From assembly GCA_964016885.1 (NCBI GenBank), contig OZ024751.1, positions 9,982,001 through 10,046,000 of the forward strand: a stretch of DNA of 64,000 nucleotides, read 5' to 3'. Made by a program: the position numbers and the translations under genes. Below, piece by piece: positions 1 to 57,300 of the stretch. Origin of the DNA: Eledone cirrhosa. Lineage: Eukaryota. Position 1 is the stretch's first letter. Every line of letters begins with the position of its first letter. The notes beneath the pieces are model-generated. The model worked only from the letters and a program-made list of their open reading frames with translations. It had not been told where the DNA came from and ran no database searches.

Positions 1-10
1 CAATGAGCCA

Positions 11-2483
11 GTGGAAAGAGACAGGAGTAATTATGAGAGACATAGAAACAACCATGAGGCTGTTGGTGGAAATAGAAATAGAAACAACACAACTAACAAT
101 AACAATAGCACTAGTACACATAAAGCAGCAGCCTGGAACTCTATGTTTTATAATCCCCCCGATAAATCGTTCGACTTGCGACGAGTCCACGCCACGACTC
201 TACCATTTAACAAACGCACGCAATTGCCGTCGCAGGTCGATGAACAAACAGAAGCACAATTTAGTATAGCTAGATCCGAACTTAGAAATATTATAGAACA
301 GTATAGCAAGAAGCATAATAGAATGGAGGCCCAGCAACTGGGAGAAAAATCTGCAAATGGCTTGCGTAAGCTCATGCAGCGCTCGCGTAATGGAGAGATA
401 GTATGCTTTCCAACAGACAAGTCTGGCAGAATGTCGGTTGACAGCCTGCCAAACTACGTCCAGGCAATGCAACCCCACATCACTAACACAAGAGAGGTAA
501 CACCACAGGAGCATGAGGATAGAGAAAAAGCCCTCAATGCCCATATGGTGATGTGGACGAATATAATGCAGCCCAACAAAAGGACTGCCAACAACCTCCA
601 GGCCTGGAACAATGACGTGCCGGCGTTGTATGGGCTTCGAAAAGACCATAAAACGGGCAGTGACCCTGTCACGGGACCACCAACACGGCCAGTCTGTGGA
701 GCTAACATTGCTAGTAACTACAGACTGTCCTAATTCCTCTCCCTGATCATACGCCCCATCATTGAAATGTCCCCAGATGTATGTGACAGCACGGAGGACT
801 TCCTCAGCAGAATCGGCGTGAGTAACCGATCTAGGGACCTAACAAACTGCATAATAGGTAGTATGGATGTTGTGTCCCTGTATCCATCTATTGACGTGGA
901 TTTTGCTGTGGAAAAATGCGTAGAAATGATCAGTGAGAGCAAGGTTGAGTTCCGTGGGATTGATACCAGTGAGCTGGGACTCCTACTTAAACTTACCTAT
1001 AGTAATAATTACCTAGACACATATGACCTTAGCAACCTGTGCCCTACAAGACCAGCAAGAGGCAGACCACCTACCATTACCTCAATGGCCAAGAAAACCC
1101 ACACAGATAGATGGAACGGGTGGACCAGAGCCATACGGACACCCGAAAACCACGATGAACTGAAGAAAATGATTGCACATGCGGTAGGGGCCAGCATAAA
1201 ACTAACCCTTAAGGAACATATGTTCAAATTTAATGGAAAAACATATACCCAAGAGGAAGGAGCAGTCATTGGTGTTAGCATTGCAGGCGACATAGCTAAC
1301 TTATTCATGGTATGGTGGGACAGTAGACTTAAACTTAAACTTAAACTTAAAGAACAATTAGAAGACCCCTTAACCCTGATAATGTACTCCCGCTACGAGA
1401 ACAGTCAGGAACTAGAGAAAAACACAATGGAAAGCATCCAGCAAATAGCTAACTCCATCCAACAGAGCATTAGAGTTACTATAGACTACCCAAGTAAACA
1501 CCCCAACCATCGATTACCTGTACTAGACACAGAACTCTGGTTAGATACCATTAATAACAAAAAACAAATCCTCCATTCCCATTATGCCAAACCCATGACT
1601 TCCAAACATCTGATCCACCGAAACTCGGCCGTTTCGGACCATACCAAAATCAACATACTGTTTGGGGATTTGGTACGGGTGATGAGAAACGTGTCCCGCA
1701 TGTGCAACCCCGAAGAACTAGAGAGACACATACAACACTCCATCCACCGTATGCAGTTCTCTGGCTACAATCAGAGAGATAAAATCAGAGTGTATAGAGG
1801 AGCCAGAACTAAATGGGAAAAAATGGTAAATAATGACATAAATGGGACCTGCCCCTTGTATAGGAGCAAATTTTGGAATAGAATAGAAAGAACTAGGAAT
1901 AAGGCTAATAGAATAAACTCATGGTATGATAGCAATAAATACCAGAGTGTAATGTTCATCGATACAACCCCTAGAGGTGAATTAGCTTACAAATTTAGAA
2001 GGGCCCTAAATAAACATAAACTCAATATTAAGATAGTAGAAAGACCAGGTACCTCGTAAAAACACTTATTAGCAAGACATACCCTTTCCAAAGACCCTCA
2101 TGTATAGATAAGAAATGTATAACCTGTAAATAAGCCCCCATATTAACTGTAAAACTAGAAATGTAGTGTATAGCATAAGATGTACTGAAGGACAATGTAG
2201 AGACAAAAATATAGTGTACATAGGTGAGACAGCTCGTAGTGTAGGGGAACGGATAAATGAACACTGGCGAGACCTTCAAGATAGTAAAGAATCATCTGTA
2301 CTCTACCAACATACTAAAATAGAATACAAGGATAAATTAGAGAACATAGAAATAAAAATAGAATCTACACACAGAAAAGACGCAATGTTTAGACAAATTA
2401 CGGAGGCAATAAACATAAAAGAATTACAACCAAAATTAAATAGAAAATATGAGTGGAACAGCAACATCACAACTTACAATTAA
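11..2483 (+). pseudogene. Disrupted PLE RT-GIY-YIG ORF
   Basis: ORFs 11-733 and 767-2059 share a frame and are separated by one TAA; frameshift near 2057; another stop near 2130; GIY-YIG in 2166-2483; the YxDD motif region appears deleted. Confidence 0.85.
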
Positions 2484-5899: not shown

Positions 5900-6414
5900 T
5901 TTAGTATTTTTCTCCACCTATTAAACTTTTCTATAGCTTAGCAATACCAATTAGAGAGTTGGTGATTGTGGAGATGGAGTAGTAACCAGAAATTGTTTTT
6001 TATACATTTATTTCCTCATTTTTATAATGGCTTTTTTGTTTACTCCCTTTCATTTTACCTATTCTTTCAACTCCCCCCTCCTCCATTTCTCCAGTGCACT
6101 TTTTTAGACCTTCTATACACTATCCTTACAATCTGCTGTATAGATTTCACTTTCAACGCTTGACTGGGTTTCCCCCACTCTCTCTTTGTTCTACCGATAA
6201 GTTCAGCTACCCCTACCTCCCACCAAATGCCATGATAGAATCATCTGTCTTTGCAACAAACTTTTGACCAATCCTTTTGACAATTACTATCTTTCCATAT
6301 ATGGAATTACCTCCTGAGAAGTTCAGCTATTTTTTTACCAGGCTAAAAATTCATATTTAGTCCAGAATTAGCCGTCGAAACGGCTTGAGCTCTGCCGTCG
6401 GGGTCATACTTGTT

Positions 6415-6496: not shown

Positions 6497-6556
6497 TTTC
6501 ATTCTGATGACTGAAAGCAAATTTGTTTGCTTTCAAGAAACCGCTGGTAAATGAAA
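6497..6556 (+). ncRNA. Type I hammerhead ribozyme motif
   Basis: tttcatt-CTGATGA-ctgaaagcaaa[tttg]tttgctttcaa-GAAA-cc[gct]gg-TA-aatgaaa; same family as 61529-61589 and 61688-61748. Confidence 0.85.
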
Positions 6557-8400: not shown

Positions 8401-11400
8401 ACGATATTAACAAATGGAAACTATATTTATAAAACCATATTTATTTCATTATACATATATCAAGGACACCAAGTTAAATTATGGTGTGCTTTTATCAGAT
8501 AAAATATAATATAGATCAGTTTTATAAATAAATATTGACATACCCTTAAAGAATGCAACCATTGCTGTTGGAAGCTCCCGGATAGTGGAGTTGTAGCTTT
8601 AATTATATTATTAGTATTGGATATTTTTATTTTTAAAATAAGCCGTTGGGTTACGGAGAAAGAGAAAGATAGAGAAGGAGAGAGAAAGAAAGAGAGAGAG
8701 AGAAAAAGAGAGAAAAAAGAGAGAGAAAAAACAGAACAACAGAGAGAGAAAGATAGAGAGAGAGAGGGGAGACAGGGAAAAGGGGAGAGAACGAAAAACT
8801 CTAAGTCATATCTTGTTGAGTTAACTTAACAATTGAGATGAAATGAATAAATAAAATTAGAAATGTTAATAATCATGAATGGAATATACATATATAATAT
8901 GAGAAATTTAACCATTGTTTAAATATGATTAGATGTTTAGTTAATCATTTAAATATTGAGATCAATATATTAAAAATTGGGATCTATATATTAAGAAATT
9001 CATATATTATTAAAGATTTATATATTACATAACACGTATAGACACGCAAAAATACATACATATAAATATATATACACACATATAAATATATATACACACT
9101 TATAAAATACATATACATATCTAATTACGTATATAATATATACACACAAAACATAAAGGATTCTTTAATTTAATTTAAGATATAGGAATCTTATAAAATG
9201 TTATAATCGTTAAGATATTAAAGGAATTTTTATGTTATACACACTTTATGTTATTAAACAAACATTTTTTTATATAAGTTTTATAAGATTACCTGTTATG
9301 TATTTATGGCTGTTATTATATGTCTATCTGTCAAGAATCTTGGGATAATCACTATACATAAGTGCAATCAAATTGTATGGATATACACGCACATGTACAT
9401 ACACAATTCCCGCATATATATACATATATGTACCCTCAACAAATAGGTAGATATGCATCACGTATACATATACATACAGATAGACATACACGCATAAAAC
9501 ATATGTACATGTATGTCAATACACACATATACATATATACACACATATAGAGAGAAGTATATATAAATACAGTACATAGTATAATTGAGTACATAAATAC
9601 AAAAGAATTATATTACAATTTGGAAATATAATTATAAGCAATATAACTTTAAAAACAATATAATTTTAAAATATTATAGAATATTTTAAGTTATAATTTA
9701 ATAATAATTGTATGTTTAACAGATTTAGTATAGAAATTTTTTACGTATATTTAACTTAAACTTTGAAAGGATAAACTTTCGAAAATAGGAGAAGCTATCA
9801 AACAATAAAAAATAAAAAAATATGAGAAATATTTTCTCCTTTCAAGAGCTCTCAATATATTTCTCTAGAATAGTTTATTATATTTATTTATATTTAGGAA
9901 GAAAAGTTATTTTTACTTGAGTCAAAAAAGATTTTTACTTGAGTCAAAAAAGATGAAGGAATCTAATGATTTATCGACAGGTTCAATATATTAATAAAAT
10001 TAATTAATTAATTAATTAATATACTACATTTTAAATTTATATTTATATTTAAACGTTGAGTTTAATCTACGTCTGCAGCAGCTGAATAAATTATTTCTTA
10101 AGTTCAAGGAATGTTTGGTCTTTAATATAAAGAATATTTCCTCTATACAAAGATCACAATTTTCTGAAGAGGAGTTAAAAGGAGTAGCTTTTGAAATAAT
10201 ATTCCAAATCAACGAATATTCAACGTTCTTTAGTGTTAGGTCCCATAATAGGCTAGATAGAGAAGTTGAAGATTTTTTGTTTGGATTTGTAAAAGAATTT
10301 TTATGATTATTGAAGCGGGATTTAAACTCTGTGGAAATGGATCCCACATAATTAAATGAATTTAAATTAGTTTTTACATTACAATTATATACTATATTTT
10401 TAGCTAAGCAATTGTTATTTAACGGACAGTTAGATTTATTTCTACAGTTACATTTATCAAATTGGATATTGCTTGGGTTATTAGTGGTATTTGGGTTAGG
10501 TTTTAAATTTCTATTATTAATTCTATTAATATTTTGTGCTAAATTTTTGGTGGAAGAATAAGTTAATTTTATAGTATGTCTATTAAAAATTGAGTAATAT
10601 CTGTGTTCTAGGGAAGCATTTTTCAAGAGCTTTAAAAAATAGTTTAGCAATAGGGGTTTTAATATTTAATGAGAAAGGAGGAGAGAACCATAATATGTTC
10701 CTAGTTCTATTTCTTTTTCGGCTTTCGGAATTAATGTAAGGTTTTCTATTATAGTTGTTAAAATTGTTACCATAGTTAAAATTGTTACGATTATGGTTAG
10801 TTGTTATATTATTATTATTATCGATGTATTTAATTTTATTTCTATTCCCAGCTCTACCTAACGCTTCGTTGTAATAATGTGCTTTTTCATCAAATATATT
10901 CTTATTAGCTGAAATTCTCGAAATTCGTTCTTGTACAGAATTCACTATAGTATTTTTAACGGATCTGGGGTGATTAGAGTTAAAATTGACGTAATTTAAG
11001 TTCTCATTTAGTTTGTGAAATGGATAATGAAGACATGTGTTAAGATTTAGTGTTACATCTAGAAAGTTAACTATTTTATGGTTATTCTCTATTTCTACTT
11101 TTAGATTAAGGTAATTAAAAAATTGTATAATTTGTTTTCTTTTTCTATTTAGTTCACAGTTATTATTTTCTATAAGTAAAAGCATGTCGTCACGATATAA
11201 ACCTCTGGTTATCTCAGGTATTTTTCTATGTAGAGAATTATTTATAAATAGGCCCACAAGATCCGTTACCTGAGCGGAATCGGATGATCCTATAGTTATA
11301 TTGAAATTATTATTTCTATCTGCCCTGGTCCAGAGTTGGTTATTAAATTCTATTAATGTTTTCCGTGCCGATAATATAATGTGCATTTCATTGCTAGTTT

Positions 11401-12253
11401 TAGGTCTGTATGTTTAAATGCGTAAGTTAGTGCTTTATTCAGTAGATTAGGAGTGATAGATGAGTAATAGTTAGCAATATCCAACTGAATAAACTTATTA
11501 TTATAGTTATATTTAATTTCTTTAAACCAATCGATAACTTCACTAGTTCCTTTCCATAATTTTAAATAAGATAAATTCTTAATTTGTGGTATTATTCTGT
11601 CTAGAATATTTTTGCTAAGTCTGCCAAGGTCCGATTTAAATGGTGCGATTAATCTGACTGGTAAATCAGTTTCGAAGTTCCTTTTATGATCCTTCATATT
11701 AATCTTAGGTTTCCTTGGCATGAAGAGTTGTTTCCTATTTTCAATGCCTAGTTCCTGCATTATATAAGAGTCATCTGTATTCAATTTTTCAAGGTCGTCT
11801 TTATTTGCTGCTTTGTATTTCTTCCTTAATTCCTTTAATATAAGATCGTTATAAATGTCCTTTTGTATTCCGTAAAGATTATTGATTTTGTCAGACTTGA
11901 CTAGAATTTTATCCGTTTTCTCCAAGTTTTCAATATTATTTTTAATATTTCTTAAGTAATCCTGGCCTTTGAAGTTATTTTTGAATTTGATGCTTTGGAT
12001 GATAGATATGATATCATTTTCAAAATCCATTAGTAGTTTGTTGGGGGGTGGATTTTTTTTAGATTTGAAGATTTTATCCAGATTGGAGACATTTTCATTT
12101 AGATTAGATTTATCGAAGTGGAAAGCACGCCACCTGATTCTTCTTATAAAAGAGTCTTATTTTTCGTATGTTTACTCCAAATGTTTGTTGAGTGCTTTAT
12201 ATCAGTTATAAAAATATTTGCTTGTTGTATCCCAACAATTTAAATAGAACTTT

Positions 12254-16234: not shown

Positions 16235-17272
16235 TTTTTAACCGTCGTGTTGAAAATGCGTGTGTATGATTTATTGAAATGTTATGTTCAGTACCTCAAA
16301 TTGGCATTTTTTATTAGTCGCTGGTCATCAAATATACGAATATGAAGACAAAATATATTCTTTATATATATATAAATACACACATATATACGTATAAATA
16401 CATATGCATACATGTACATATATATACATATATATAGATACATATATGAACATACATACATTATAAAGAGTCGGGTCCCGACGGTTGAGCTGCTGCCGTT
16501 TCAATAGCTCGTTCCAGTTATTTATATTAGTATATATAAATTATATATATAATACCTATATAAATATGTATATATATATATTTATTTATATGTATATATA
16601 TTTATTTATATATATATATCAGAGCAAACATCACGGACGCTCTATCTCAAAATTATTTTTGAAAAGCATTTAGAAATGCGCAACCGGTAAAACTTAAAAC
16701 CAAAACTGAATTCTAACCAATACAATTACTAATTCTCATTTATTCCTAATTAAACTATTTTTCACTGTGAACAATTTGTCAGCATTTTCTATTCCGTTTA
16801 CCAATATATATATATATATATATAACGAAGGAAATGTGGTAAGGAACCAGGTGGACCATAACGCACCAAAGTACTCAATACTTGAGGTAGTAGAGTGGGT
16901 AATAGGAACCAGTAAGACCCCGACAGCTGAGCTCAAGCCGTTTCGACGGCTAATTCTGGACTAAATGTTTTGTGCGAAGTTTGGTGTAGTGCCCGGGCGC
17001 CACGGATTCGTTTTCGAGGTCGAGGGTCACGTCCAGGAAGTTTACTCGGGTCAGGGACGTTTGTAGGGTTATTTTAAATCCCCAGTCGCGGAAGAATCTG
17101 ATTAATTGTTTCCGGACCCGATCTGTACTACTGGGGTTATACCCTTTAAGGGTAAGGAGCCCATCATCACGGTACAATCCACCACCGAATGCAGGAAATA
17201 TATCAGTGAGTTTGGCTATTAGGAATAATCCTATAAGATCTGTGACCTCCGCCGAATCCGTGGCGCCCGGGC

Positions 17273-17818
17273 ACTACACCAAACTTCGCACAAAACATCG
17301 TCTCCTCTAACAACAAAAAACTCAACCCCGATGGCAGAAATAACCTAAATAGCAGTTGAGAACCGACCAGGAGGTGTAACTGCCCGGATAGATCTATTTG
17401 CCCACGCGAAAATAGATGCAGAGACCGTAATGTGATCTACCAGTGCAACGTGAGGACGGATACCTCCAACAAAGCCTATATAGGACTTACCGCATGTGAC
17501 TTCAAGACCCGGCTATACCAACATAGACATACCTTCCGAAACCCGGCCCGGCGTCACGCCACTACACTTTCGGGCCACATATGGGACCTCAAGGACAACA
17601 ACATCACCTATGATCTCACTTGGAGATTACTGTCCAGAGCCAATTCTTACACGGGAGGACGCCGTCCGTGCAATTTATGCTCGGAGGAAACTTTACAAAT
17701 GCTGTTTTCGACGGACCAACTCCTAAACAAGAAAGATGAACTGGTTACTGCATGTAAACATAGATCGCGTAGGACTTACCTCGCCCTCAAACCCCATAAT
17801 GACCCGGGGGGGGGGTAG
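17273..17818 (+). pseudogene. Naiad-type GIY-YIG endonuclease domain
   Basis: CxCx5C; VIYQC...YIGLT...FKTRLYQH; CNLC; LLNKKDELVTACKH. Confidence 0.85.
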
Positions 17819-18933: not shown

Positions 18934-19027
18934 ACCCCTTGAGAAGATCGGCTATTTAAATACCAGGATAAATTTTCATTTAGTCCAGAATTAGCCGTCG
19001 AAACGGCTTGAGCTCAGCTGTCGGGGT
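18934..19027 (+). ncRNA. Hammerhead motif with U3/A8 core (UUGAGAA), family A
   Basis: acccc-TTGAGAA-gatcggcta...tagccgtc-GAAA-cggcttgagctcagctg-TC-ggggt. Confidence 0.7.
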
Positions 19028-19039
19028 CTTACTGGTTCC

Positions 19040-19070
<31 letters not shown>

Positions 19071-21956: not shown

Positions 21957-23270
21957 ATTTCTTTATTTACCATAAAGGCATAAAAAGAAGGGACAAATAC
22001 AAAGGGGGAGTTTACATACAATCGAGTAAAAAGGGTGTAACATGAAAATAATCGAAAATAACCTCAAAAGGGAGGGGACGTGATGGGGGTTGCACCCCCC
22101 CCCCCGAAAAAGTGTGCAATCCTTTGCCTGGGGAGCACATGGAGAAGGTGCTCCCCTCTCCTTTACTTCTTTACCTACAGGATGGTATACAGAGAAGGCC
22201 CATTTACACGAACCATTCTCGCCACTATCACCCACCTTTCATAAAACTGCCTGTGGCCAAGCACCTCTCTCTCCATTCTTATCCTTCTTCCGAAGTGATA
22301 TCGGAAGAAGTAGACCAGACTATGGCCAGAGAGGAAGTTGCCTGACCTCAGACCTTTCAATCGTGTCCACCAAACAACCTCTTTCAACATGGCTATTACG
22401 CACAGAAAAACCGCCTTTGCTTCCTTTGTGAAGAGGGGAGGCGGTTTGATTGTCATCACGGACTCGGCGGTCAATTGAATCGGCGCCACCCGCGACAGCA
22501 GTCGTTCGGCGTAGCCCCACAGATCAGCCACGCCCGGACATTGCACCAATGCGTGCGCAACGGTTTCTTCGTGACGCACGCATCTAGGGCAAATCTTTTT
22601 TGAGGGATCCCTGCCCGGGCGCCCGTGTCTGTAGAGCCTCTCTCGAACGGGTAGAGCCCCCCGGTAGCACTGCCAGGCCAGTGACTTCTGGAAGTTGTCC
22701 ATTGGTCCTGGGCCGAAAGTCCTTCCGAACAGGCTGGCCAGTTCGTCCTCTTCCATGTCCAGCGACTCTCCAAGGGTGTCATCGCCCCTGCTAGCCACCA
22801 ACCCTCTATAGAATGAAGAGGTGGATTCTCCACCGATGGCCTGGCCCGCTTGCCAGAGAGCCCTGAGCGCCTGAGCACAGTCAGTGTGCCAGTCTCCCAG
22901 TTTTCCGGATCTTTGCTTGACCCAGGACTGTAGCTCGGTGAGCGAGACGAGTCTCGGAAAGGCTCGTTTCACGAATGGAGCCCACACCGGTTGACCAGTG
23001 AGGAATACCTGTAGGTGCCGTAGCCTTAATGCGTGCCTACGCATCATCAACCACGGCATCCCCAGCCCTCCTTTCGAAGGTTGTTGGCAGCAGATGGATC
23101 TTCTCACCATAGGAGGGCGCTTCTTCCAAAGAAATTGGAAGAGCATGCGTTCCATGGTGGTGAGTGTTTCCTTAGGGCAAGGCACGACAGTCAGGCGGTA
23201 GTAAGTGACGGACTCTATGTAAATGTTCGCCACCTCCGCCCGGCCTCTTAGGGACAGCTTACACGGAAAG
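21957..23270 (-). mobile_element. Tx1/L1-type LINE copy 1 (5'-truncated; ORF2 C-terminus with zinc finger)
   Basis: Paralogous to the ORF2 C-terminus at 28793-29885 (LSLRGRA, GGLGMP, CPRC...ETVAHALVQC); 3' end AAATAAAGAAAT then atatctat. Confidence 0.9.
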
Positions 23271-23275
23271 AAAAT

Positions 23276-23320
23276 ATAGATAGATAGGTAGATAGATAGA
23301 TAAATAGATAGATAAATAGA
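23276..23320. repeat. (GATA)n tract between LINE copies 1 and 2
   Basis: tagatagataggtagatagatagataaatagatagataaataga. Confidence 0.9.
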
Positions 23321-26300
23321 TTTCTTTATTTGCGACAAGGGCGCACAAGAAAAGGGGACATACAATCGTGTAAAAATATAAAAAACAAACAATTATAACA
23401 ATCGAAATCCCCAATAGGGGGAAGCCCCACAAGTGGGTTGTTTAATACCCCGTCAATAGAACAACCCTCAACTTCAGGAGCGTGCTGTGCAAGTGCTCCT
23501 TTCTTCCTTTTGCTCTCTTCTTTAACCTACAGGCTTATAAACAGAGAAGGCCCAATCACTCGGGCCATTTTTGCCAAATTCACCCACCTTTCAGTAAATT
23601 TACTGGGGTGCAGTGCCTCTCTCTCCACTCTGATTCTCCTTCTAAAGTGATACTTAAAGAAGGGAATCAATTGTTGTCCGGAGAGAAAGGCATATGTCCT
23701 CAGTCCTCTCAATCTCGTCCACCATATAACCTCTTTCACCATAGCTACTGTACAGAGGAAAACCGCCTCTCTTTCGGGTATTGTACAATTGCGTGCAAGA
23801 CGGTTTCAATGTCCTGCTCGCATCTTGGACACGTCCTCTTGGAAGGATCCCTGCCGAGGCATCCGTGCCTGTGGATCTTATCTCGAATGGGTAGAGCTCC
23901 TCGGTAGCACTGCTAGGCCAGGGACATCTGGAAGTTGTCCATAGGTCCCGGGCGGAAAGTCCTACCGAACAGACTGGTGAGCTCGTCGTCTTCGACGCCT
24001 AGAGTCTCCCGGAGCACGTCGTCGCACTTGTAAAGTGCTAACCCTCTATAGAATGTCGAAGTGGAGTCTCCACTGATTGCTGTGCCCGCTTGACAGAGAA
24101 CTGAGCGCCTGGGCGCATTCAATGTGCCAGACGCCCATCTTCTTCGGTCTTCGCTTGACCCAGGAGTGCAGCTCCGTCAGCGAGACAAGTTGTGGGAAGG
24201 CCTGTCTCACCAACGGTGCCCAGACCGGTTGGTCGGTGAGGAATACCTGGAGATGCCGTAGCCTCAGCGCATGTTTGTGCATCATTAGCCACGGCATGCC
24301 CAGCCTTCCGTTGGAAGGGTGTTGACAGCAGACGGATCTCCTCACTGGTGGAGCCTGCTTCTTCCACATGAACTGGAAGAGCATGCGTTCCATCTTGGTG
24401 AGGTATTCACGGGGACAAGGCACGACAGTCAAGCGGTAGTAGATGACAGACGCTATGAAAGTGTTCGCCATCTCCGCTCGACTTTTCAAAGACAGTTTGC
24501 ACTGCCCACTTCTGGGTGAGCGCAAATACCTTGGCCATGACCTCGTTCCAGTTTTTCTTCACCTGGAGGTCTGGACCGAACCAGACCCCGAACAATTTCA
24601 CCGGTCCTTCCGTCCAGCGTCCGACGACGCTGTCGGACGGCATCGGTTTGCCTCTCCACGTTCCGAGCTGCAAACTGACAGACTTGTCCGGGTTCAGTTT
24701 TTCTCCTGTGAACCTTTCGTATTTCCGTAGTAGTTTGCCGATTACCTTGATTTCCGAGGTTTTCGACACCATTACTGTCACGTCGTCGGCATAAGCCGAC
24801 GCCGCTTTTCGCAGTCCCGGTTCTAAAGTGATGCCCTGCAAAAGCTCCAACTTCCGCAGTAGTGGCTCTAGAGTCAATACGTACAGAATGGAGGAGAGAG
24901 GGCATCCCTGTCGAATGGAGAGCGTGATTGCGACCCTCGAGCAGATGCTGGTGTGCATCGCCTTGATCCAGCCCCTGAAAACGGGACCGAAACCAGCCGC
25001 CTTGAGAACCGCTTCCAAGTATCGATGGTCGACCCTATCGAATGCCTTAGACTGATCTAAATTGATCAGAGCCCCACCAAAGCCGGGTTTACTACCCACC
25101 CTCTCTATGATGTATCGCATGAGGTGGAGGTTGTCGCGTATGGACCTGGTCGGGATTGCACACGTTTGCGCTTTCCCTACCAGGTTCTCGACAAGCACCA
25201 ACCTCGTTGCTAGCACCTTGGCCAAAATCTTTAACTCTGTGTTGAGTAGAGTTATGGGCCTGAAGTTGTTAATTTAGTCCCCCTAGTTCTCGTCTTTCCT
25301 GATCAGCGTTACTACGCCCTTGCCTGCAGAACTGGGAATTCTCCCGTTCTGCTGCCAATTGCAGTAGACGGCTTCGAGGACGCCAGAAAACAAGTCCGGC
25401 ATGCCTATGTAAAACTCATAGGGTAGATCATCTAGACCGGATGACTAGCGTTTCCCGCAGCGGCCCAGAGCGTCCCGTATCTCAGTGTCCGTGATCGGTC
25501 TTTCGCAGAACTCGGCGTCCATGCCCAAGAAACGCGGCAAGCCGTCGAGGTATGAACTAAGGTCCATTGCCGCGTTCGGCTCACCGTCGTTCTGCTCAAA
25601 CAGTCGCGCAAAGTGCTGCTGAAAGGCCGCGCACATTTGCTTGTGGTCAAGTAGCACCCATCCGTTTTGGTCTTTCAAAGACCGAATCGTGGACTTGTTG
25701 CCACTTTTCACCTCCGCCACTCGGGCCCAGCTGACAGCTTTCGTTCCTTCGTTTCCTAAAGCACGTGTTTTGCTTCTGACCACGCAGCCTTTGTGTTTCG
25801 CGTCGAAGAACTGGTCCAGTGCCGTTCTCGACGCTAACACTCTAGCCACGTTGTCACTTCTAAGTGCCTCCTCTACCTTGGCTAGTAGTTCTGTCTCTGA
25901 TTTGTTTTTCTCTAAGGCTAACTCTCTGCTAAACCCTATCGATTCTACTCTAATTGCTTTCTTGAGAGAGTACCACCATCTATTGTTGACGATGGCTCCC
26001 GTTAACAGTTGCTTGACTGGTCTACTTATCCGTTCACTGTAAATTTACGTGCCAGCAAAGACACGTTTAGCTTCCAATATCCGGGTCCCTGTCTATGTGT
26101 TCTATCACGGTTCACTATGCAGACGACTAATTTGTGATCTGAATAGGCAACCATGTGCATTTGTGGACAGCTTAACATCTCCTTGTTCTTTTCCCTAATG
26201 AAGAACCAATCTAAATACGATCTAGATGTCCCGCTGCGGTTTGTCCACGTCTACTGTCGTGCAGTCGGGAAATCCAGTCGATACCTATCGGCCAGTTGGA

Positions 26301-28792: not shown

Positions 28793-31700
28793 CTATAGTC
28801 TGATGTAGAGTGAAGGCCCATTCACACGGGCCATTCTCGCCACTTTCACCCATCTTTCATAGAAACGGCTGGGGTGCAGCACCTCTCTCTCCATCCTGAT
28901 CCTTCTTCCGAAATGATATCGGAAGAAACGGACCAGTTGTTGGCCAGAGAGAAAGGTGCCCGACCTCAGTCCTTTCAGACGCGTCCACCATACAACCTCT
29001 TTCGCCATGGCTATTACGCACAGAAACACCGCCTCTGCTTCATCTTTGAAGGGGGGAGGCGGCTTGATCATTACAATAGACTCGGTGGTCAACCGGATCG
29101 GTCCCACCCTTGACAGCAGTTGTTCGACATAGCCCCACAGATCGGCTACGCCCGAGCAGTGTACTAATGCGTGTGCAACGGTTTCCTCGTCGCACACGCA
29201 TCTGGGACAGATCTTTTTGGCGGGGTCCCTACCCGGGCGCCCGTGTCTGTAGAGCCTTTCTCGAACGGGTAAAGCCCCTCGGTAGCACTGCCAGGCCAGG
29301 GACTTCTGGAAGTTGTCCATAGGTCCCGGGCTGAATGTCCTACCGAAAAGGCTGGCCAGTTCGTCCTCCTCCATGTCTAGGGCTTCTCCGAGGGCGTCGT
29401 CGCACCTGCTGCGTACCAGCCCTCTATAGAATGTTGCGGTGGAGTCTCCACTGATAACCGGATCCGCCTGCCAGAGGGCGGTGAGCGCCTGGGCACACTC
29501 AGTGTGCCAGGCGCCCAGTTTTCTCGGTCTTTGCTTGACCCAGGATTGCAGCTCGGTGAGTGAGACGAGTCTGGGAAAGGTTCGTCTCACAAACGAGGCC
29601 CACACCGGTTGTCCGGTGAGGAATACGTAGAGGTGCCGTAGCCTTAATGCGTGTTTACGCATCATTAGCCACGGCATCCCCAGCCCTCCTTTCGAAGGGT
29701 GTTGACAGCAGATGGATCTCCTCACCATAGGAGCCCGCCTCTTCCAAAGGAATTGGAAGAGCGCGCGCTCCATCTTGGTGAGGGTTTCCCTTGGGCAGGG
29801 CACTACGGTCAGGCGGTAGTAGATGACGGACGCTATGTAGGTGTTCGCCACCTCCGCCCGACCTTTCAGGGATAGTTTGCAACTGGCCCACTTCTGGGTC
29901 AGTGCAAACACTCTGTTCGTAACCTCCGCCCAGTTTTTCTCCACCTGGAGGTCCGGTCCGAACCAGACCCCGAGCAACTTCACCGGGCCCTCCGTCCAGC
30001 GTCCGACGACGCTATCGGAGGGCATCGGTCTGCCCCTCCACGTGCCGAGTTGCAAACCGATCGACTTGTCCCGGTTCAGCTTAGCCCCTGTGAACTTTTC
30101 GTACTCCTCCAGTAAGGTGCCGACCGCCTCGATTTCGGAGGCCGTCGACACCATTACTGTCACGTCATCGGCGTAGGCCGACACCGCTTTCCGCAATCCC
30201 GGTTCCAAAGGGATGCCCTGCAACAACTCCAACTTCCGCAGTAGTGGCTCGAGAGTCAATACATACAGAAGGGAGGAGAGAGGGCACCCTTGTCGGATGG
30301 ACCGCGCGATTTTGAACGGCTCCGAGAGGTAGCCGTTCACCTTGACCCTAGAGCAGATGCGGCTGCTGTGCATAGCAGTGATCCAGCCCCTGAAAACGGG
30401 TCCGAAGCCTGCCGCCGCTAGCACCGCATCCAGGTAACCATGGTCGACCCTATCGAACGCCTTAGATTGATCCAAGTTGATCAGAGCCCCACCAAAGCCG
30501 GGTTCGTTCCCAACCCTCTCTATGATGTATCGCATGAGGTGGAGGTTGTCATGGATGGACCTGGACGGGATAGCGCATGTCTGCGCATCTCCCACCAGGT
30601 TGCCCACGACAAGCGCCAACCTCTTTGCTAGCACCTTGGCCAAAATCTGTAACTCTGTATTTAGCAGTGTTATGGGCCTGAAGTTACTTATTTCGTCCCC
30701 CTTGTTCTCGTCCTTCCTCACTAGCGTGACTACGCCCTTGGTCACAGTACAGGGAATTCTCCCGTTCTGTTGCCAGTTGCAGTAGACCGCCTCGAGGAGA
30801 TCGGGGAACAAGTCCGGCATAGCTAGATATAATTCGTAAGGAAGACCATCGAGACCCGGGGATTTGCGTTTGCCGCATTGGCTCAGCACGTCCTCTATCT
30901 CAGCGGCCGAAATCGGCTCCTCGCAGGACTTCGCCTCCCTGTCCGAGAGGCGCGGCAGGCCGTCGAGGTATGGACCGAAGTCCACGTTCCCAACCGGCTC
31001 CCCGCCCCTCCCGAACAGTCGGGCAAAGTGCCTTTGAAAGGCCTCACACATCTGCTTAGGCTCAAGAATCGCCCGTCCATCCAGGTCTCGCAAAGACCGG
31101 ATGGTGGATTTAGTTCCACTGTTGGCCTCTGTCACGCGGGCCCAGCTAACAGCTTTGGTCCCCTCGTTCCCTAGAGCACGTATTTTACTTCGGACAACGC
31201 AGCCTTCGTGCTTCGCGTCGAAAAACTGGCTCAAAGCCGTTCTCGACGCTAGCACTCTGGCCACGTCGCCGCTTCTAATTGCCTCTTCTACTCTATCTAT
31301 TAGCTCCCTTTCCTTCCTATTCCTATCCGCAGCTAGAACCTTACTAAATTCTATCGAGACTACTCTAATCTCTCTCTTTAGAGATACCCACCACCTGCTG
31401 TTGACGATCGCTCCAGTCAACCGTTCCTTAACTAACGTACTAATCCGATTCCTGTAGGCTCTACTTGCCGGCAAGGACAAGTTGAGCTTCCAGTAACCGG
31501 GGCCCTGTCTATGAGTTCTGTCAAGGTTGACCATGCAGGTCACTAATTTGTGGTCTGAATAGCCAACAATGCGCATTTTTGGACAACTTAAAAAGTCCTT
31601 ATCCTTAATTCTAACTAAGAACCTATCTAGGTACGACCTAGATGATCCGCTACGATTTGCCCAAGTCCAGGTTGGCGCAGTCGGAAAATCTAGTCGATAT

Positions 31701-32230
31701 CTATCGGCCAGGTCAAATCGACCGATTAACCCTTTGAGGCTATTACACCCCTCTCTATCGGGGCAGGCCCCTACGTAGTCCCAGCGTGCATCTAGGATAC
31801 CATTCCAGTCCCCCACTAATAGCAAGGAGCGGGACGTCCCTAGAAAAGTCTCCAGACGATGGAAGAAGTCCGGCCGCATTGACCCGAAAGGGCCGTAGGC
31901 GGCTACCAACCTAAACGCTCCGCCTTTACCACTGCCAAGGTCCAGAACCACTAGTCGACCCTCCGGGTCCAAATGTACCATCTGTGTTGCGAGACCCAGA
32001 TGTTTTTGCAGCAGAACGACAACTCCACCCCCACCTCCAGGCTGACAGAGAGATGCGTGCATCTCAAAGTCATCAAAGGTGGGGGCCAGCTGTCGCACGT
32101 TGCTGATCCGGGCCTCGCAAATAACCATCACATCTATACGTTGTGACCTGAGGTCATTTAGAAGCATTGCTTGCTTCCAAGTTGAGCCCAGGCCACGCGC
32201 ATTTAAACAGCCTACTCTTAGCATAGCCAT
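28793..32230 (-). CDS. LINE ORF2: APE endonuclease + reverse transcriptase + C-terminal zinc finger (1145 aa from first ATG)
   Basis: Uninterrupted ORF: LNARGL, GDWN, TW, LDRF, SDH (APE); KSPGLDG, FRPITLLN, LDQSKAFDRV, RQGCPLS, AYADD (RT); CPRC..ET..H...C. Confidence 0.95.
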   Translation of the reverse strand: MAMLRVGCLNARGLGSTWKQAMLLNDLRSQRIDVMVICEARISNVRQLAPTFDDFEMHASLCQPGGGGGVVVLLQKHLGLATQMVHLDPEGRLVVLDLGSGKGGAFRLVAAYGPFGSMRPDFFHRLETFLGTSRSLLLVGDWNGILDARWDYVGACPDREGCNSLKGLIGRFDLADRYRLDFPTAPTWTWANRSGSSRSYLDRFLVRIKDKDFLSCPKMRIVGYSDHKLVTCMVNLDRTHRQGPGYWKLNLSLPASRAYRNRISTLVKERLTGAIVNSRWWVSLKREIRVVSIEFSKVLAADRNRKERELIDRVEEAIRSGDVARVLASRTALSQFFDAKHEGCVVRSKIRALGNEGTKAVSWARVTEANSGTKSTIRSLRDLDGRAILEPKQMCEAFQRHFARLFGRGGEPVGNVDFGPYLDGLPRLSDREAKSCEEPISAAEIEDVLSQCGKRKSPGLDGLPYELYLAMPDLFPDLLEAVYCNWQQNGRIPCTVTKGVVTLVRKDENKGDEISNFRPITLLNTELQILAKVLAKRLALVVGNLVGDAQTCAIPSRSIHDNLHLMRYIIERVGNEPGFGGALINLDQSKAFDRVDHGYLDAVLAAAGFGPVFRGWITAMHSSRICSRVKVNGYLSEPFKIARSIRQGCPLSSLLYVLTLEPLLRKLELLQGIPLEPGLRKAVSAYADDVTVMVSTASEIEAVGTLLEEYEKFTGAKLNRDKSIGLQLGTWRGRPMPSDSVVGRWTEGPVKLLGVWFGPDLQVEKNWAEVTNRVFALTQKWASCKLSLKGRAEVANTYIASVIYYRLTVVPCPRETLTKMERALFQFLWKRRAPMVRRSICCQHPSKGGLGMPWLMMRKHALRLRHLYVFLTGQPVWASFVRRTFPRLVSLTELQSWVKQRPRKLGAWHTECAQALTALWQADPVISGDSTATFYRGLVRSRCDDALGEALDMEEDELASLFGRTFSPGPMDNFQKSLAWQCYRGALPVRERLYRHGRPGRDPAKKICPRCVCDEETVAHALVHCSGVADLWGYVEQLLSRVGPIRLTTESIVMIKPPPPFKDEAEAVFLCVIAMAKEVVWWTRLKGLRSGTFLSGQQLVRFFRYHFGRRIRMEREVLHPSRFYERWVKVARMARVNGPSLYIRL

Positions 32231-32254
32231 GTTGGTGGTGAAGAGAAAAGGCAC

Positions 32255-34176: not shown

Positions 34177-37100
34177 TTATTTTACTGAAGTGCTTTTGGA
34201 TACACAATGTTTTTTTGTTTTTCCTTCTGGTGCGTACACGAATAAATCAGAAGGTTTACCGACGCGTGAGCAAGCCACATACAGCTGTCCATGTGAGAAG
34301 CATGGATTTTCTAAATTTAGTCCACACACTTGTAGCGATTGTCCTTGTGCTTTGTTGATAGTCATTGCAAAGGCGAGTCGCACCGGAAACTGCAAACGTT
34401 TGAATTCGAATGGCGTATCTGTTGGAATCATTGGGATGCGTGGCAACAGTACATCTTCTTTTAATTTTCCATTTAAAATTGTAGCTTCGATGATATTGTT
34501 CATAATCTTTTTCACTGAAAGCCTAGTACCGTTGCAAAGTTGTGGTGGATTGATGTTTCTGAGAAGGATGATAGGCACGCCAATTTTCAATGTTAAAATG
34601 TGCGGTGGCATGCCTGGCAAATCAAGTGAATTCAAGAATTCAGTTGGATAATTGATAATTTCGTCTTGATTCATTAAAGTATCAATGGACTTATACGTTG
34701 TCGCTTCGCTTGGTATTTTGTTTTGAATGCTGAAATTAATGGCATTGACATCGTTGTTTTTGGCTGCTAATATAGCACGTGCATTGAACCACTGATGATT
34801 TTTGTAATGCTGCGCGATATTTGGGAAAACTTTGTGAATCAGTTCGTCTCTGGTTGCCGTGATTCTACAGAAGTTTGTTCGCAATGTCATACATTCTGTG
34901 GATTCATCGATTACCATTTTCCCATTCCCAATATCCAGCAATTGTTTTGTGAAACGTTCAGCGGATGCATCATTTTGTAGTTGTACACGCATATTGGTTT
35001 TTAAAGTTAATTTCTGTACGTGTCGCCATAAAACTGATGATTTGAGACATGCATTAAGCTCATCGGCGGGTGTTGATCGCGGTATAACTGGTAGAGTTTG
35101 TCGAAAATCACCAGACAATAAAATGAGTGTGCCACCGAAGAGCTGTTCATTTCCTTTCAAATTTTTTAGTGTGTTATTAAGCGCTTCCAATGATTTTTTG
35201 TGCGTCATAGTACATTCGTCCCATATAATGATTTGACATGATTGGAGTACTTTACCTATACCAGAATTTTTGGTGATATTGCATGTTGGTGTCTCAGTGA
35301 TTTGCATATTCAATGGCAATTTCAGTGCTGAATGTGCAGTTCAGCCACCATCCAAAAGAGTTGCCGCAATTCCAGATGATGCGATTGCCAGTGCAATATT
35401 ATTTTGTGATTGTATAGTTGCCAAAATAAGTGAAATGAGAACAGTTTTGCCTGTACCACCGGGCGCATCTATAAAATACAATCCGCCGCTTTGATTTGTA
35501 ATTGCCTGCATAATTTTGTCATATACTATGCGTTGTTCTGGTACCAATTTCAGAAGATTCGTTTGAACAAATGTACCCAATTCGGCGACATCAAAGTTTG
35601 TTTCTCGTTGCAAATCACGATCGAAAATGTCGTTTACAGATCGATTCGGCGCAGGCATTCCCAATTGTACCAGTGTTTTCTTAGCGATTGCTAAACATAT
35701 GACCTCAATCGAAACCAATGCTTCATTATACACGATTGGTGTGAATTGAATATTCAGATTTTGATTTGTTGCACGCAAACGATGTAGGATGTCTTCACTC
35801 ATGTAGTCTTTGTATTTTTCCCAAAGATCTTTTGGATTTGATGGGAAGCACGTTGTCAATATTATTGCGAATAACGTGCGTATTTGCTGTGGTCGAGCAG
35901 TATTCGATGCATCAGCGAGTGAAGTGTCCCAATGTCCATCATTTTCAAGAAGATTTAATTTTTGGCAAGCTTCACGATAAGTGGCACATACTTGACCGTT
36001 TACTGTTCTCAATTCTTGGAATGATGTCGGTTCACGTACGTTGATTAACAATAATCGCAAGTAAAAGCATTCTGCATTATTTGGGTGAACAGTGTACAAA
36101 CGGCCTAACGCGTCGATGGAATATAAATTGGGATGTCCTTCAACTACTTTACCCTGTTTGCGACGTTTAAACTTTTTCGTTGATGTATTCCATGTGTAAT
36201 ATGTTGGCACTTCAGAATAAAGTAGTGTCTTTGGAAACACATCTTCACTGCACAATGAGAAAAACGCAGTTAACGTTGTTGGCGGTGGTATCAATGCCTT
36301 TGCACGTATATTTTCAGTTGTGAAGTATACGCGCTGTCCATTTTCAAGGTGCACCGCCAAATAAACAACTGTTGGATGTCGATAATGGATTGGAAATGAT
36401 AAAATGCGCCATACTGCTTCATTACTACTAATGTAGCGTCCCAGTTGGCATTGGTCTATTTCATCGATAGATGCATTTGCATTGCACACTCCAAAAACTG
36501 CCATATCGCTTCCTTTGTTGATATATTTGCAAATGTACTTGATCGCTTTCATCGAATTGCAATACTCGACATTGATGTGTGCTTTGAACGTCTTGAGAGT
36601 AACGGTGAATATGGTACAACCCAACGATTATCGACTTCAACATAATTGTTTCGTACTTTTAAAGTGATGGATTTGCCGCCATCTTCAGTTGCTCGTCGAC
36701 GATAGAGTAGATATCCGTCATTGCCAGTGATAGTCTCGGCAACTAAGTCTCTTGGGTATTGTTTCGTGCATTTCCCATCAGACATGCATGGTGAATTGTT
36801 GTTGAGTAAGCCACATGGACCATGAATCATGTTTTTAGTGACGACTTCAAATAAGTCTGAATCAACGTCGACATCTGGTATTTCTGCTGAGATGATTTGA
36901 TCAATTTGATCTGGTGTGACTTTTTCAATTAACCAAATCAAAATGTGTGCATGTGGCAATCCTCTTTTTTGCCATTCAATGGAAAACATTCAACAGCGTG
37001 TCTCTCCAAAAACATGATGCTTGACAATTAAATCCGTTAAAGATTTCAATTTTTGTTTGAACACACGCGCTGTAATATCATGACGATCCGAAGACGATTG

Positions 37101-38906: not shown

Positions 38907-38989
38907 AATTGAATAGAAAATGGGTTGATTTCTGAAATATTTTTTTTTTTTAAACTATAGATAAAGGACAAACAAACATACATTCATTT

Positions 38990-50552: not shown

Positions 50553-50827
50553 ATAACAAAGGAAGTGTTGTAAGGAACCAGGTGGACCATAACGCACCAG
50601 AGTACTCGATACTTTAGGTAGTAGAGTGGGTAATAGGAAAAGAGTCAGGACCCCGAAGGCTGAGCTCCGGCCGTTACGACAGCTAGTTCAGAACTAGCTG
50701 TAGTAACGGCCGGAGCTCAGCCGCCGGGGTCCTGACTCTTTTCCTATGACCCACTCTACTACCTAAAGTATCGAGTACTCTGGTTCGTTATGGTCCACCT
50801 GGTTCCTTACAACACTTCCTTCGTTAT
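50553..50827. repeat. Near-perfect fold-back of a family-A-related pLTR end, embedded in (TA)n
   Basis: ~137-bp arms around a single central base at 50690 (agctagttc-a-gaactagct). Confidence 0.9.
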
Positions 50828-51509: not shown

Positions 51510-51696
51510 TCTTCTACTGGCAGGTTCAGCTACCCCTTCCCTCCACAAATTGCCATGATAGAATTATTATGTCTCAACAACAAACTTTTGACCAATCCTT
51601 GTGACAATCACTTTTACCATATATGGAATTACCCCCTGAGAAGCTCGGCTATTCAAATACGAGGATAAACATTTTTATTTAGTCCAGAATTAGCCT
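51510..51696 (+). mobile_element. Family A pLTR fragment, inverted relative to the adjacent element
   Basis: Reverse complement of ~51909-52093. Confidence 0.85.
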
Positions 51697-51739: not shown

Positions 51740-51793
<54 letters not shown>

Positions 51794-51878
51794 AAATGTG
51801 GTAAGGAACCAGGTGGACCATAACGCACCAAAGTACTCAATACTTAGGGTAGTAGAGTGGGTAATAGGAACGAGAAGG

Positions 51879-51974
51879 ACCCCGACGGCTGAGCTCAAGC
51901 CGTTTCGACGGCTAATTCTGGACTAAATAAAAATGTTTATCCTCGTATTTGAATAGCCGAGCTTCTCAGGGGGT
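51879..51974 (-). ncRNA. Hammerhead-like motif, CUGAGAA core, GUC site (3' pLTR)
   Basis: acccc-CTGAGAA-gctcggcta...tagccgtc-GAAA-cggcttgagctcagccg-TC-ggggt. Confidence 0.65.
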
Positions 51975-52721
51975 AATTCCATATATGGTAAAAGTGATTG
52001 TCACAAGGATTGGTCAAAAGTTTGTTGTTGAGACATAATAATTCTATCATGGCAATTTGTGGAGGGAAGGGGTAGCTGAACCTGCCAGTAGAAGAAAGAG
52101 GGAGAGGGGTGGAGGAAACCCAGTCGTGGTGCGTTGATAGTGCCAGCTACAGCTGAGCATGAGGTCAAAGAAGATACTAGGGGGAGGGGGAGGAAGTCGA
52201 AACAATAAGTAAAACAATATGGGGTAAATATATAGAGAAATACCGAGAGTGTTAAAAACAATTAAATGTAAAAAAAAAACCATTTGTGGTTACTATAACC
52301 TAAGGACAGCTATTAAGTCTCTCACTGGTACTGCTAGACTAAAGAAAGGTTTACTAGGTGGGACGGAATTATAATGAGACCCTTTTAAGAGGTATAAGTA
52401 AACAACCGAATATATCTTACGGTGACGGGTCAACAAGTGGGACGCCAAAATATTAAAGAAACTACCACGAATTAATAATTCAGAGTCCCGAGACCAGTAC
52501 CAAATAAAGGTTTCTACCCCAGGCCCAAGGCCAGCAACCACCCAGTGCAAAAAAAAAATAAACTAATACGAAATAATAATTCAGAATCCCGAAAAAGAAA
52601 ACTAATACTATCTCTAAGGGTGCCGCCACGATACAAAAATTCTAGTGCAAACTACATAAATGCTCGTACGAAGTATATGTAAAATTTGATACGGAAAATT
52701 AATTCAGAATCCCCCCGCTCC

Positions 52722-54467
52722 ACGTTGCACTGGTAGATCACATTACGATCTCTGCATCTGTTGTCGGGGGGCAAATGGATCCATCAGGACAGTTGCACCT
52801 CCTGGTCGGCTCTCCACTGCTATTTAGGTTATTTCTTCCATAGGTGTTGAGTTTTTTGTTAGAGGAGACGATGTTTTGTGCAAAGTTTGGTGTGGTGCTG
52901 TAGGAGAGTTTGATGGTATTTTTGTTAATTATGTTGTGGTAGCGGTGTTGTAGTGGGAAGTGTTTTTCAATGAGCCTAAAGAAGATTTTCCCGATAGGAG
53001 TTGAGTTGTCACCTCGGCGTTGTGGGGGGATTAAACCATGTTACCTTGCGTGAGCGGCGGTGTCACCTGCTGGTTCCGCTAATGGAAGCTGGACAGTACG
53101 ATATTTCCTCCCGGAAACCACTCCGCTTGATGGCCTGGTTGTAATAAGGCGCATGTTCCTCGAATATCTGCTCATTAGCTGACAAACGAGATATGCGGAG
53201 GGAGATGTTTTTAACCAGGTTATTGGTGATGTTCCTAGGATGGTTTGACCGGCGGTGGATGTAGTGCAGGTTGCCGTTAGGTTTCCTGTATGGGCAGTAC
53301 AGATCATTATCGAGGTCAAGGGTAACGTCCAGGAAGTTTACTCGGGTCAGGTACGTTTGTAGGGTTATTTTAAATCCCCAGTCGCGGAAGAAGCTGATTA
53401 AAGGGTAAGGAGCCCATCATCACGGTACAATCCACCGCCGAATGCAGGAAACATATCGGTGAGTTTGGCTATTAGGAATAATCCTATAAGATCTGTGACC
53501 TCAGCCGAATACGTCGCGCCCATGCTGACGTCGAAGGGTGAGTCGGGAGCTCTCTTTATCCATTTGGAGTTGTCGAAGAGTAAGACTGTCTTCCTGGCGT
53601 GGAGGATGATGTTATTTCCTGGTCGGTGATGGGCACAAGTGTTTCGGCGAAATCCAAGGCAGCCGTAAGTAGCGGTAAAGTAATTGAAGCATAGTAACTC
53701 TCTATGTCAAACTGGATGAATTTAGTGTCTCGTTTTTCCACCATATTGCTGAACCATGAGATTACTTCCTAGGTGTTGACCCATAGGCTAAGTCTGGCGT
53801 GTTGCTTAACTTTTGGTATAACGCGGTCTAGGATTTTTTTGCTGATTCTCCCTATGTCGGACTTCGTTGGGTTTATAAGCCTGATAGAAGGTTTACGGTC
53901 GAAATCGGATTTGTGGTCCTTCAGTGTGAAGTAGGGTGTCCGTGGGTCTAGGGGTTCCGTGCGGTCGGCGACCCCGAGGCTGGAGGAAATTTGTTGTCCA
54001 TCTCGATTTATGTCCTCGATGCATGAGTGGTTAGCCTTTTTATAGGTGGAGTTTAGGCTGCTCCTGATCAGTGTGTGGTATCTGTCGGAGTTGACAAAGT
54101 AGAGGTTACCAGTTTTATCCGAGTGCACCATGATGTCATTGGTGTTATCATACTCTGTTAAGTTGCTACGGAGTTTATGTAGGAATCGGTTGTGTCTGGG
54201 TTTGAATTTAATGTTCTTGACCAGTTGGAAAAGGTCATTCTCGAAGGGGGAGAGCATAGGGTTCGGAGGGGGAGATTTGTAGGTAATAAATCCGAATCTC
54301 TCCTTGGTACCGAAGTCCTGATTGTCGCAATATCTGTCGTAGAGAAATGTTCTCCATCTAAGTCTTTTCGCAAATAGATCGATTTTTTGCGTGAGCTTCC
54401 GAACGTAAAGTTTTTTCGGTGGGACTGGGATGTTCTTGGTAGAGAAGTCGATGTTGTGTTTTCGCAT
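52722..54467 (-). pseudogene. Naiad-like PLE RT ORF (stop, frameshifts, deletions)
   Basis: FSTKNIPVP; RLRWRTF; VHSDKTGNLY; TLKDHK; RLINPTKSDIG; FIQFDIESYY; FDVSMGA; GLYRDDGL; VNFLDVTL; CNCPDGSIC. Confidence 0.88.
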
Positions 54468-54652
54468 GGTGTGGGTGAAAGAACTTGAGCTTAGTGGAAA
54501 AGTCTGGATACGGCGTGGTAGGGTCGGAAATTGCTCTACTACGGGAATAGGAGCTAGATAACGAAGGAAATGTGGTAAGGAACCAGGTGGACCATAACGC
54601 ACCAAAGTACTCAATACTTAGGGTAGTAGAGTGGGTAATAGGAACGAGTAGG

Positions 54653-54748
54653 ACCCCGTCGGCTGAGCTCAAGCCGTTTCGACGGCTAATTCTGGACTAA
54701 ATAAAAAATTTTATCCTGGTATTTGAATAGCCGAGCTTCTCAGGGGGT
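54653..54748 (-). ncRNA. Hammerhead-like motif, CUGAGAA core, GAC at the cleavage triplet (5' pLTR)
   Basis: As 51879-51974 but ..agccg-AC-ggggt. Confidence 0.55.
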
Positions 54749-54808
54749 AATTCCATATATGGTAAAAGTGATTGTCACAAGGATTGGTCAAAAGTTTGTT
54801 GTTGAGAC

Positions 54809-54873
<65 letters not shown>

Positions 54874-57166: not shown

Positions 57167-57300
57167 ATAATAATAATAATAAACGTGAAGACTAAGCGTG
57201 AAAGCAGCGATTCTTTGCTTAAACTTTAATCTGTTATCTTAATATATATATATATATATATATTATAAAGAATCGGGACCCCGGCGGCTGAGCTCCTGCC

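Follow-up and report, generated by a model that had tools for sequence, protein, structure and literature searches.

Amplified PLE hammerheads with A at position 8 in Eledone cirrhosa: subfamilies with a U3-A8 pair beside subfamilies with a C3.A8 mismatch

The window (the whole 64,000-nt stretch of Eledone cirrhosa contig OZ024751.1 analyzed here) contains a family of Hydra-type PLEs whose type I hammerheads carry A instead of G at position 8, paired in some subfamilies with U at position 3 (U3-A8) and facing C at that position in others (C3.A8). The explanation favored here, at a rough probability of 0.55, is that the U3-A8 subfamilies likely cleave and the C3.A8 subfamilies are slow or silent, the latter having multiplied anyway since fast cis-cleavage is probably not needed. 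PLE hammerheads and the U3-A8 core are known from earlier work; what appears to be new, judging from a literature search that covered few subscription papers, is an amplified C3.A8 state beside U3-A8.

The copy at 18934-19027 (Table 1) has a stem I of ACCCC (18934-18938) paired with GGGGT (19023-19027), a UUGAGAA core (18939-18945, A8 at 18944), a G10.1-C11.1 pair (18946 with 18999), a stem II of six pairs (CGGCTA 18949-18954 with TAGCCG 18992-18997) enclosing a 37-nt loop, GAAA at 19000-19003, and a near-palindromic stem III of five pairs, one of them G.U (CGGCT 19004-19008 with AGCTG 19016-19020). The GUC triplet ends at 19022, after which the cut is predicted, and the insertion terminates near 19040, inside (TA)n. 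The coordinates of stems, core, GAAA, and GUC agree with the type I layout and U3-A8 core that the first-pass annotation had proposed here; its identification of a PLE hammerhead likewise agrees with the pLTR setting, the Hydra-type protein motifs, and the layout, and the A8 that it reported in place of G8 is present in every resolved copy and contig. The copies have three stems round the core, an open stem I, and an NUH cut site (with the exception of the 54743 copy, which has GAC), as expected of type I hammerheads, and U4, G5, A6, A9, G12, A13, A14, A15.1-U16.1, and G10.1-C11.1 are all present in the copies with cores at 18939, 51969, and 6314. The minimum-energy fold of 18934-19027 is the hammerhead three-way junction, although its stability is not above that of shuffled sequences (z 0.17). 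A strict hammerhead descriptor gave 2 matches in the real window versus 1 in 100 block-shuffled windows, on which basis chance resemblance was rejected. No hammerhead family was present among the 150 of 263 Rfam matches listed for the window, which were microsatellite-driven miRNA matches below the gathering score.

Table 1. Hammerhead copies in the window and the elements that carry them
Feature	Position	Strand	Basis
Subfamily A1 hammerhead of type I with U3-A8 core, 3' pLTR of truncated element	18934..19027	+	hammerhead-fold probability 0.50-0.57, descriptor
Near full-length Hydra-type PLE, subfamily A2: 5' pLTR, broken RT-EN ORF, 3' UTR, 3' pLTR and tail	51790..54810	-	tblastn, copy comparison
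5' pLTR hammerhead, C3.A8 core, cut-site triplet GAC not GUC	54653..54748	-	copy alignment
3' pLTR hammerhead of A2, C3.A8 (C3 = 51969, A8 = 51964), otherwise intact	51879..51974	-	read-mapping reference
Inverted piece of A2 insertion, 5' half hammerhead (C3 at 51636), ends after stem II	51510..51695	+	copy alignment
Solo pLTR/3' UTR remnant hammerhead, subfamily A3, C3.A8, one stem II mismatch	6309..6404	+	copy alignment
3' part of A1 ORF: CxCX5C linker and GIY-YIG-type endonuclease, one in-frame stop	17277..17818	+	tblastn to P0009, E 7e-20
Inverted 5' segment of A1 insertion: RT fragment 17010-17267 joined to 3'-half hammerhead and tail 16828-16967	16828..17267	-	
Palindrome: two sister-family 3'-half hammerheads with tails, centre in loop II, without CUGA half	50559..50821	.	
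Short sister-family 3'-half hammerhead, begins in loop II, inserted in TA-rich DNA	16477..16519	-	

CUGAGAA cores occur at 6314 (+), 51636 (+), 51969 (-), and 54743 (-). The earlier count of four C3.A8 copies and one U3-A8 copy is correct for the core sequences but not for their independence, since three of the four C3 cores (54743, 51969, and 51636) lie within a single insertion; four independent C3 copies were accordingly rejected, and the five cores represent three independent insertions in the window, of which two carry C3 and the third U3. The 54743 and 51969 cores belong to the 5' and 3' pLTRs of that insertion, which differ at 5 places in 247 nt, and the 51636 core sits in an inverted piece of the 51790-54810 insertion that is identical over the aligned length and is cut off after stem II, so that it is without the GAAA half. 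The claim of a full layout with GUC throughout the family stands for the layout but not for every copy, as the 54743 copy has GAC, the 6314 copy a stem II mismatch, and the 51636 copy only one half. The A2 RT-EN ORF (54467-52768) is broken into four frame segments with stops and deletions. Copies of the 3' part only, starting in loop II or later and followed by the tail, are seen at 16828-16967 (-), 50559-50821, 16477-16519 (-), and 57276-57295 (-), and possibly represent a short non-autonomous element or transcription starting in loop II. The tail carries a CUC-UAC/GUA-NN-GAG motif able to form a bulged hairpin (51825-51848 (-), and also the tails of 54743, 16904, and 50559-50821). Only in the two sister-family tails is this hairpin the fold of minimum energy; the motif was not found in Hydra-type loci L005-L012 and possibly serves the element's protein as a signal. 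The tail of the coral element Hydra-2_Amil, compared by eye with that of the family, has a similar hairpin motif with a longer stem.

The family is assigned to the Hydra clade by protein motifs and by comparison with reference Hydra sequences by eye. A tblastn search with P0009 (707 aa) spans 54467-52768 and 17282-17785; there are 463 protein homologues, most of the 120 listed being near 700 aa, and Pfam returned no significant match for the ORF fragments. The ORF at 54467 contains SDKTG (the DKT motif) and RWR, with R for the K of RWK as in the best homologue (P0001), the CxCX5C linker reads CNCPDRSIC within 17360-17818, CCHH is absent (a single C lies between the VIY and YIG motifs), and the copies are inserted in (TA)n with pLTRs and an inverted 5' copy. 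A C-terminal endonuclease, DKT, CxCX5C, lack of CCHH, and (TA)n targets are the Hydra-clade features given in the text consulted from Craig et al. 2021 (PMC8557442), and the family has all of them, along with inverted 5' pieces and, close to the 3' end, a type I hammerhead that has a tail behind it. In contrast, the published Hydra hammerheads in that source, for which a canonical descriptor was used, are C3-G8 in 26/26 rows, and the family differs from them in its A8, its long loop II (37-39 nt), and its 5-bp near-palindromic stem III; the published Hydra-1_Obim hammerhead is also a different sequence. A scan of eight Hydra-type loci that allowed either pyrimidine at position 3 and either purine at position 8 gave 10 matches in three of the eight, and 10/10 were C3-G8. 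Because the published rows and the scanned loci are all C3-G8, A8 is likely a derived state of the family and G8 likely ancestral in Hydra.

Searches with DNA patterns of the family gave 0 matches in viral contigs and 0 in metagenomes, the 5' half had 0 matches in genome contigs, four bacterial matches to a family 19-mer were taken as chance, and protein-based searches for loci found none in metagenomes or viral contigs. Eukaryotic PLE contigs were seen within records labeled as bacterial genomes (L008, 4449-5600 and the minus strand; L011, 825-1300), and the canonical hammerheads of L008 are of three kinds, every one of them present as an inverted pair.

Public reads and contigs from 4 of the 10 listed runs, aligned to 51790-52120 (the 51969 copy) at 80% likeness, give the state of positions 3, 7, and 8 beyond the window; families more than 20% from the reference are left out of this alignment, and the core of a more abundant sister family is outside the data. 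At 51969, U3 accounts for 53% of the depth of the 50 contigs of X1, for 34.1/58.2 of depth in organism B (59%), for 20.9/29.1 of depth in organism C (72%), and for 74/443 raw reads in X8, a reduced-representation library whose count is biased because reads end at the AATT sites flanking the core (51914, 51975). The range across the four runs is thus 17-72%, with contig depth not equivalent to copy number. Of the 150 variant rows, the 40 with the best support include a single position of the catalytic core, position 3; position 8 is absent from these 40. X1, the deepest contig set, has one T>C place at a frequency of at least 2%, namely 52036, so G8 is below 2% there; X8, X4, and X6 have 5, 1, and 1 T>C places outside the 40 best-supported rows, any of which could be position 8. 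Depth matching between the variant and contig listings explains every difference of four contigs: in organism B, contig 14 (depth 22.1) is C3.A8 and contig 15 (depth 26.1) is U3-A8, and in organism C, contig 21 (depth 17.7) is U3-A8 and contig 24 (depth 8.2) is C3.A8. As the lowest listed contigs have a depth of only 2-3, these four are probably collapsed multi-copy subfamilies. G8 is absent from the major contigs of organisms B and C. The Watson-Crick 3-8 pair is present in the 18939 copy, B contig 15, and C contig 21, and absent from the 6314, 51969, and 54743 copies, B contig 14, and C contig 24; C3.A8 subfamilies are treated here as hammerhead-derived motifs and are not classed as working ribozymes.

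Decay of single copies was rejected as the source of C3.A8, because U3 and C3 are both far above per-copy divergence and because C3.A8 occurs in deep contigs in other organisms. The first-pass annotation had offered an active U3-A8 master or a retained C3.A8 as separate readings, and the data point to a blend of the two, in which U3-A8 subfamilies exist and often hold the larger share. C3.A8 is an amplified state in three organisms, as the second of these readings proposed, but it is not family-wide, since position 3 is dimorphic with U3 alongside. The suggestion that C3.A8 would be the decay of one dead lineage if the consensus had G8 is disfavored by the G8 share below 2% in X1 and by the four resolved contigs, in which G8 does not occur.

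In structure prediction, the hammerhead fold has a probability of 0.50-0.57 in the U3 copy versus 0.08-0.12 in the intact C3 copy, and exchange of the pyrimidine in the two copies that form the fold indicates that C at position 3 cuts it 2- to 4-fold; with C3, a competing pairing (CUGAG/CUCAG) between the core and the 3' strand of stem III becomes available. In the accessible part of a deep scan performed on a type III hammerhead (PMC9901934), all single and double changes in the 3-8 region have low activity except the C-G swap; the G8A figure is not separate there and U3-A8 is not singled out as rescued. U3-A8 is active in vitro and naturally occurring (PMC3088659), and its earlier description as a known compensated variant is borne out by published examples (PMC3088659, PMC4209133). 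Schistosoma Cercyon PLEs have about 1,300 U3-A8 matches and share with subfamily A1 the compensated core and the location in PLE pLTRs, but the Cercyon motifs are minimal, without a full stem III, and no amplified uncompensated C3.A8 sisters are described in the portion consulted (PMC4209133). By analogy with these other scaffolds, the U3-A8 subfamilies likely cleave, whereas slow cleavage or none is predicted for C3.A8. The literature search, which covered few subscription papers, found no amplified natural C3.A8 family and no editing-gated natural hammerhead, and the accessible text of bioRxiv 10.64898/2026.07.22.740005, PMC6765202, PMC11014351, and PMC2920678 has nothing bearing on C3.A8.

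Comparison of the two C3.A8 subfamilies (51969 versus 6314) indicates that the scaffold has been kept, possibly while it carried C3. Differences number 84/352 outside the stems and core versus 3/55 inside (p = 0.001), 0/15 core positions differ (p about 0.008-0.17, depending on the baseline), and loop II, which lies between the conserved halves, differs at 9/39 positions (23%, p = 0.025). The contrast of stems and core is not significant, however, when the baseline is the 61 nt immediately upstream, which have 7 changes (p = 0.33). Divergence among A1, A2, and A3 is mosaic along the 3' UTR, which makes recombination likely and means that either C3 or U3 may have come first. Residual function is possible, given the apparent conservation of the stems and remaining core positions between the two subfamilies. 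The cricket satellite Dolichopoda pDo500 (PMC2837043) resembles the family in having stems and core more conserved than the flanks, but its changes at C3 (4/198) and G8 (2/198) are sporadic decay, whereas the mismatch here is a major state.

A different account, in which C3.A8 is itself a working core in this scaffold, draws in part on this conservation. The C.A wobble together with loop II contacts, a dimer through the palindromic stem III, or a protein would sustain cleavage, with position 3 drifting between U and C. The identity of the two C3.A8 subfamilies at 15/15 core positions and the standing of position 3 as the sole catalytic core position among the best-supported variants are consistent with this account, as are the loop II signatures, which suggest repeated change or recombination at position 3. 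Published work adds that tolerance of core changes is scaffold-dependent (PMC3884650) and that cleavage by a PLE hammerhead is protein-assisted (PMC11167929). Nevertheless, changes at 3-8 gave low or no cleavage where tested (PMC9901934, PMC11167929), C3 worsens the predicted fold, and the near-flank baseline removes the significance of the conservation, so a working C3.A8 core is possible but doubtful. The related proposal that C3.A8 is a selected, working intermediate between C3-G8 and U3-A8 across species, with U3 gained repeatedly as compensation, is held just as tentatively.

The opposite account, that the C3.A8 subfamilies are dead lineages mobilized in trans, would have one or two masters lose the pair and be copied by U3-A8 or other relatives, with the conservation left over from earlier selection and from recombination. 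It would fit the multiply broken A2 ORF, whose pLTRs are only 2% apart, the mosaic divergence of A1, A2, and A3, and the copies of the 3' half only, for which depth is 2- to 33-fold above that of the core half (partly a library effect in X8). A dead core, however, should lose any of its 15 positions, and yet the only core change is identical in two subfamilies; divergence has also reached 23% in loop II, which separates the conserved halves. Wholly dead lineages are therefore considered unlikely. In favor of the preferred explanation, by contrast, are insertion ends that lie about 20 or 95 nt beyond the cut site and a read depth that does not change abruptly at the site itself. The drop in X8 depth at 51917 and 51975-78 was rejected as a sign of truncation, since the AATT sites explain it.

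A shift of register in the C3 subfamilies, by which G7 would replace G8 (CUGA-GA, with position 7 deleted) and the third purine would become an extra base between 9 and 10.1, is a quite improbable way of restoring the pair. G stands at position 7 in all C3 copies seen, and PLE hammerheads typically have one additional nucleotide between 9 and 10.1 (PMC4209133). G7 is also found in the U3 subfamily A1, though, and is simply the common state, no precedent was found for a working deletion of position 7, and a loose end in organism B that reads U3, C7, A8 fixes the ordinary register, with position 7 as the free position.

The least probable explanation, and one that the first-pass annotation had raised as speculation, is that ADAR turns A8 into inosine and so restores a C3-I8 pair, making cleavage dependent on editing. 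The inverted piece at 51510-51695 could give about 185 bp of dsRNA over the core, but editing in so long a duplex would also hit A6, A9, A13, and A14, and the duplex would exclude the ribozyme fold. Since inosine is read as G by reverse transcriptase, editing at position 8 should leave DNA copies with G8; in X1, however, G8 stays under 2%, and none of the four resolved contigs contains it. Hyper-editing is very high in Octopus (PMC5625713) and squid editing sites show neighbor preferences (PMC4384741), but in both clusters of animal species a 5' G is found less often than expected next to edited adenosines (PMC5625713), and this disfavored neighbor is the one that A8 has in G7. Editing-gated cleavage is disfavored on these grounds.

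Under the preferred explanation, A8 would have become fixed in the family from an ancestral G8 in Hydra, after which U3 would restore the 3-8 pair, and C3 would leave a C.A mismatch and add the competing CUGAG/CUCAG pairing. C3.A8 copies would still be reverse-transcribed and inserted without fast self-cleavage, and some selection may have continued to act on the stems and remaining core positions, either for slow cleavage assisted by protein or dimer formation or for a fold used by the element's protein. The spread of C3.A8 is likely explained by the behavior of Anolis Poseidon PAc (Frangieh et al. 2024, PMC11167929), a PLE that inserts in vitro with a dead hammerhead: in the accessible text, its 3-8 mutants lost cleavage and inserted normally, the main template was uncut RNA, and cleavage required protein. 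PAc resembles the family in having a PLE hammerhead with a downstream tail, and dispensable cleavage in vitro fits the spread of C3.A8; it differs in its canonical C3-G8, its clade, and in that its dead cores were engineered, whereas those of the family are natural. Pure loss of function does not predict the excess of conservation inside the stems and core at p = 0.001, although the nearest-flank comparison gives p = 0.33, and the activity expected of U3-A8 here is borrowed from other scaffolds.

The window also holds other hammerhead-like motifs and mobile elements. Canonical CUGANGA hammerhead-like motifs appear under relaxed thresholds at 6504 (+), 61695 (+), 61582 (-), 59735 (-), 41378 (+), 62439 (+), and 15810 (-), of which 61582 and 61695 are inverted relative to each other as a pair and belong to one family with 6504; chance may account for the weaker motifs. 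Two small repeat families have CUGANGA followed by a stem and GAAA (2691 (+), 13416 (-), and 57358 (+); 4261 (-) and 15472 (-)) and are likely pLTR remnants of other PLEs. A second Hydra-type ORF, AT-rich and in three frame segments, lies at 10024-12156 (-), with no hammerhead found downstream of it. A non-LTR retrotransposon has an intact 1153-aa endonuclease-RT ORF at 28793-32254 (-), the best homologue of which is 69% identical, and two broken relatives lie in tandem as fragments at 22175-26044. Three ORF segments at 34177-38954 (-) are presumably a Helitron Rep-helicase, as their motifs look like one, and two at 2-2059 (+) are taken to be a PLE-type reverse transcriptase of a different clade.

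The role of hammerheads in endonuclease-bearing PLEs is still called unclear in the consulted text of PMC8557442. Paired and mismatched cores that stand side by side in a near-identical scaffold, both apparently amplified, would provide a natural test of the need for self-cutting. If C3.A8 is dead, the family would be genomic evidence that cis-cleavage is dispensable for the spread of PLEs in vivo; if C3.A8 cleaves, it would be a natural exception to the rule of the 3-8 pair, and searches for CUGANGA would miss whole families.
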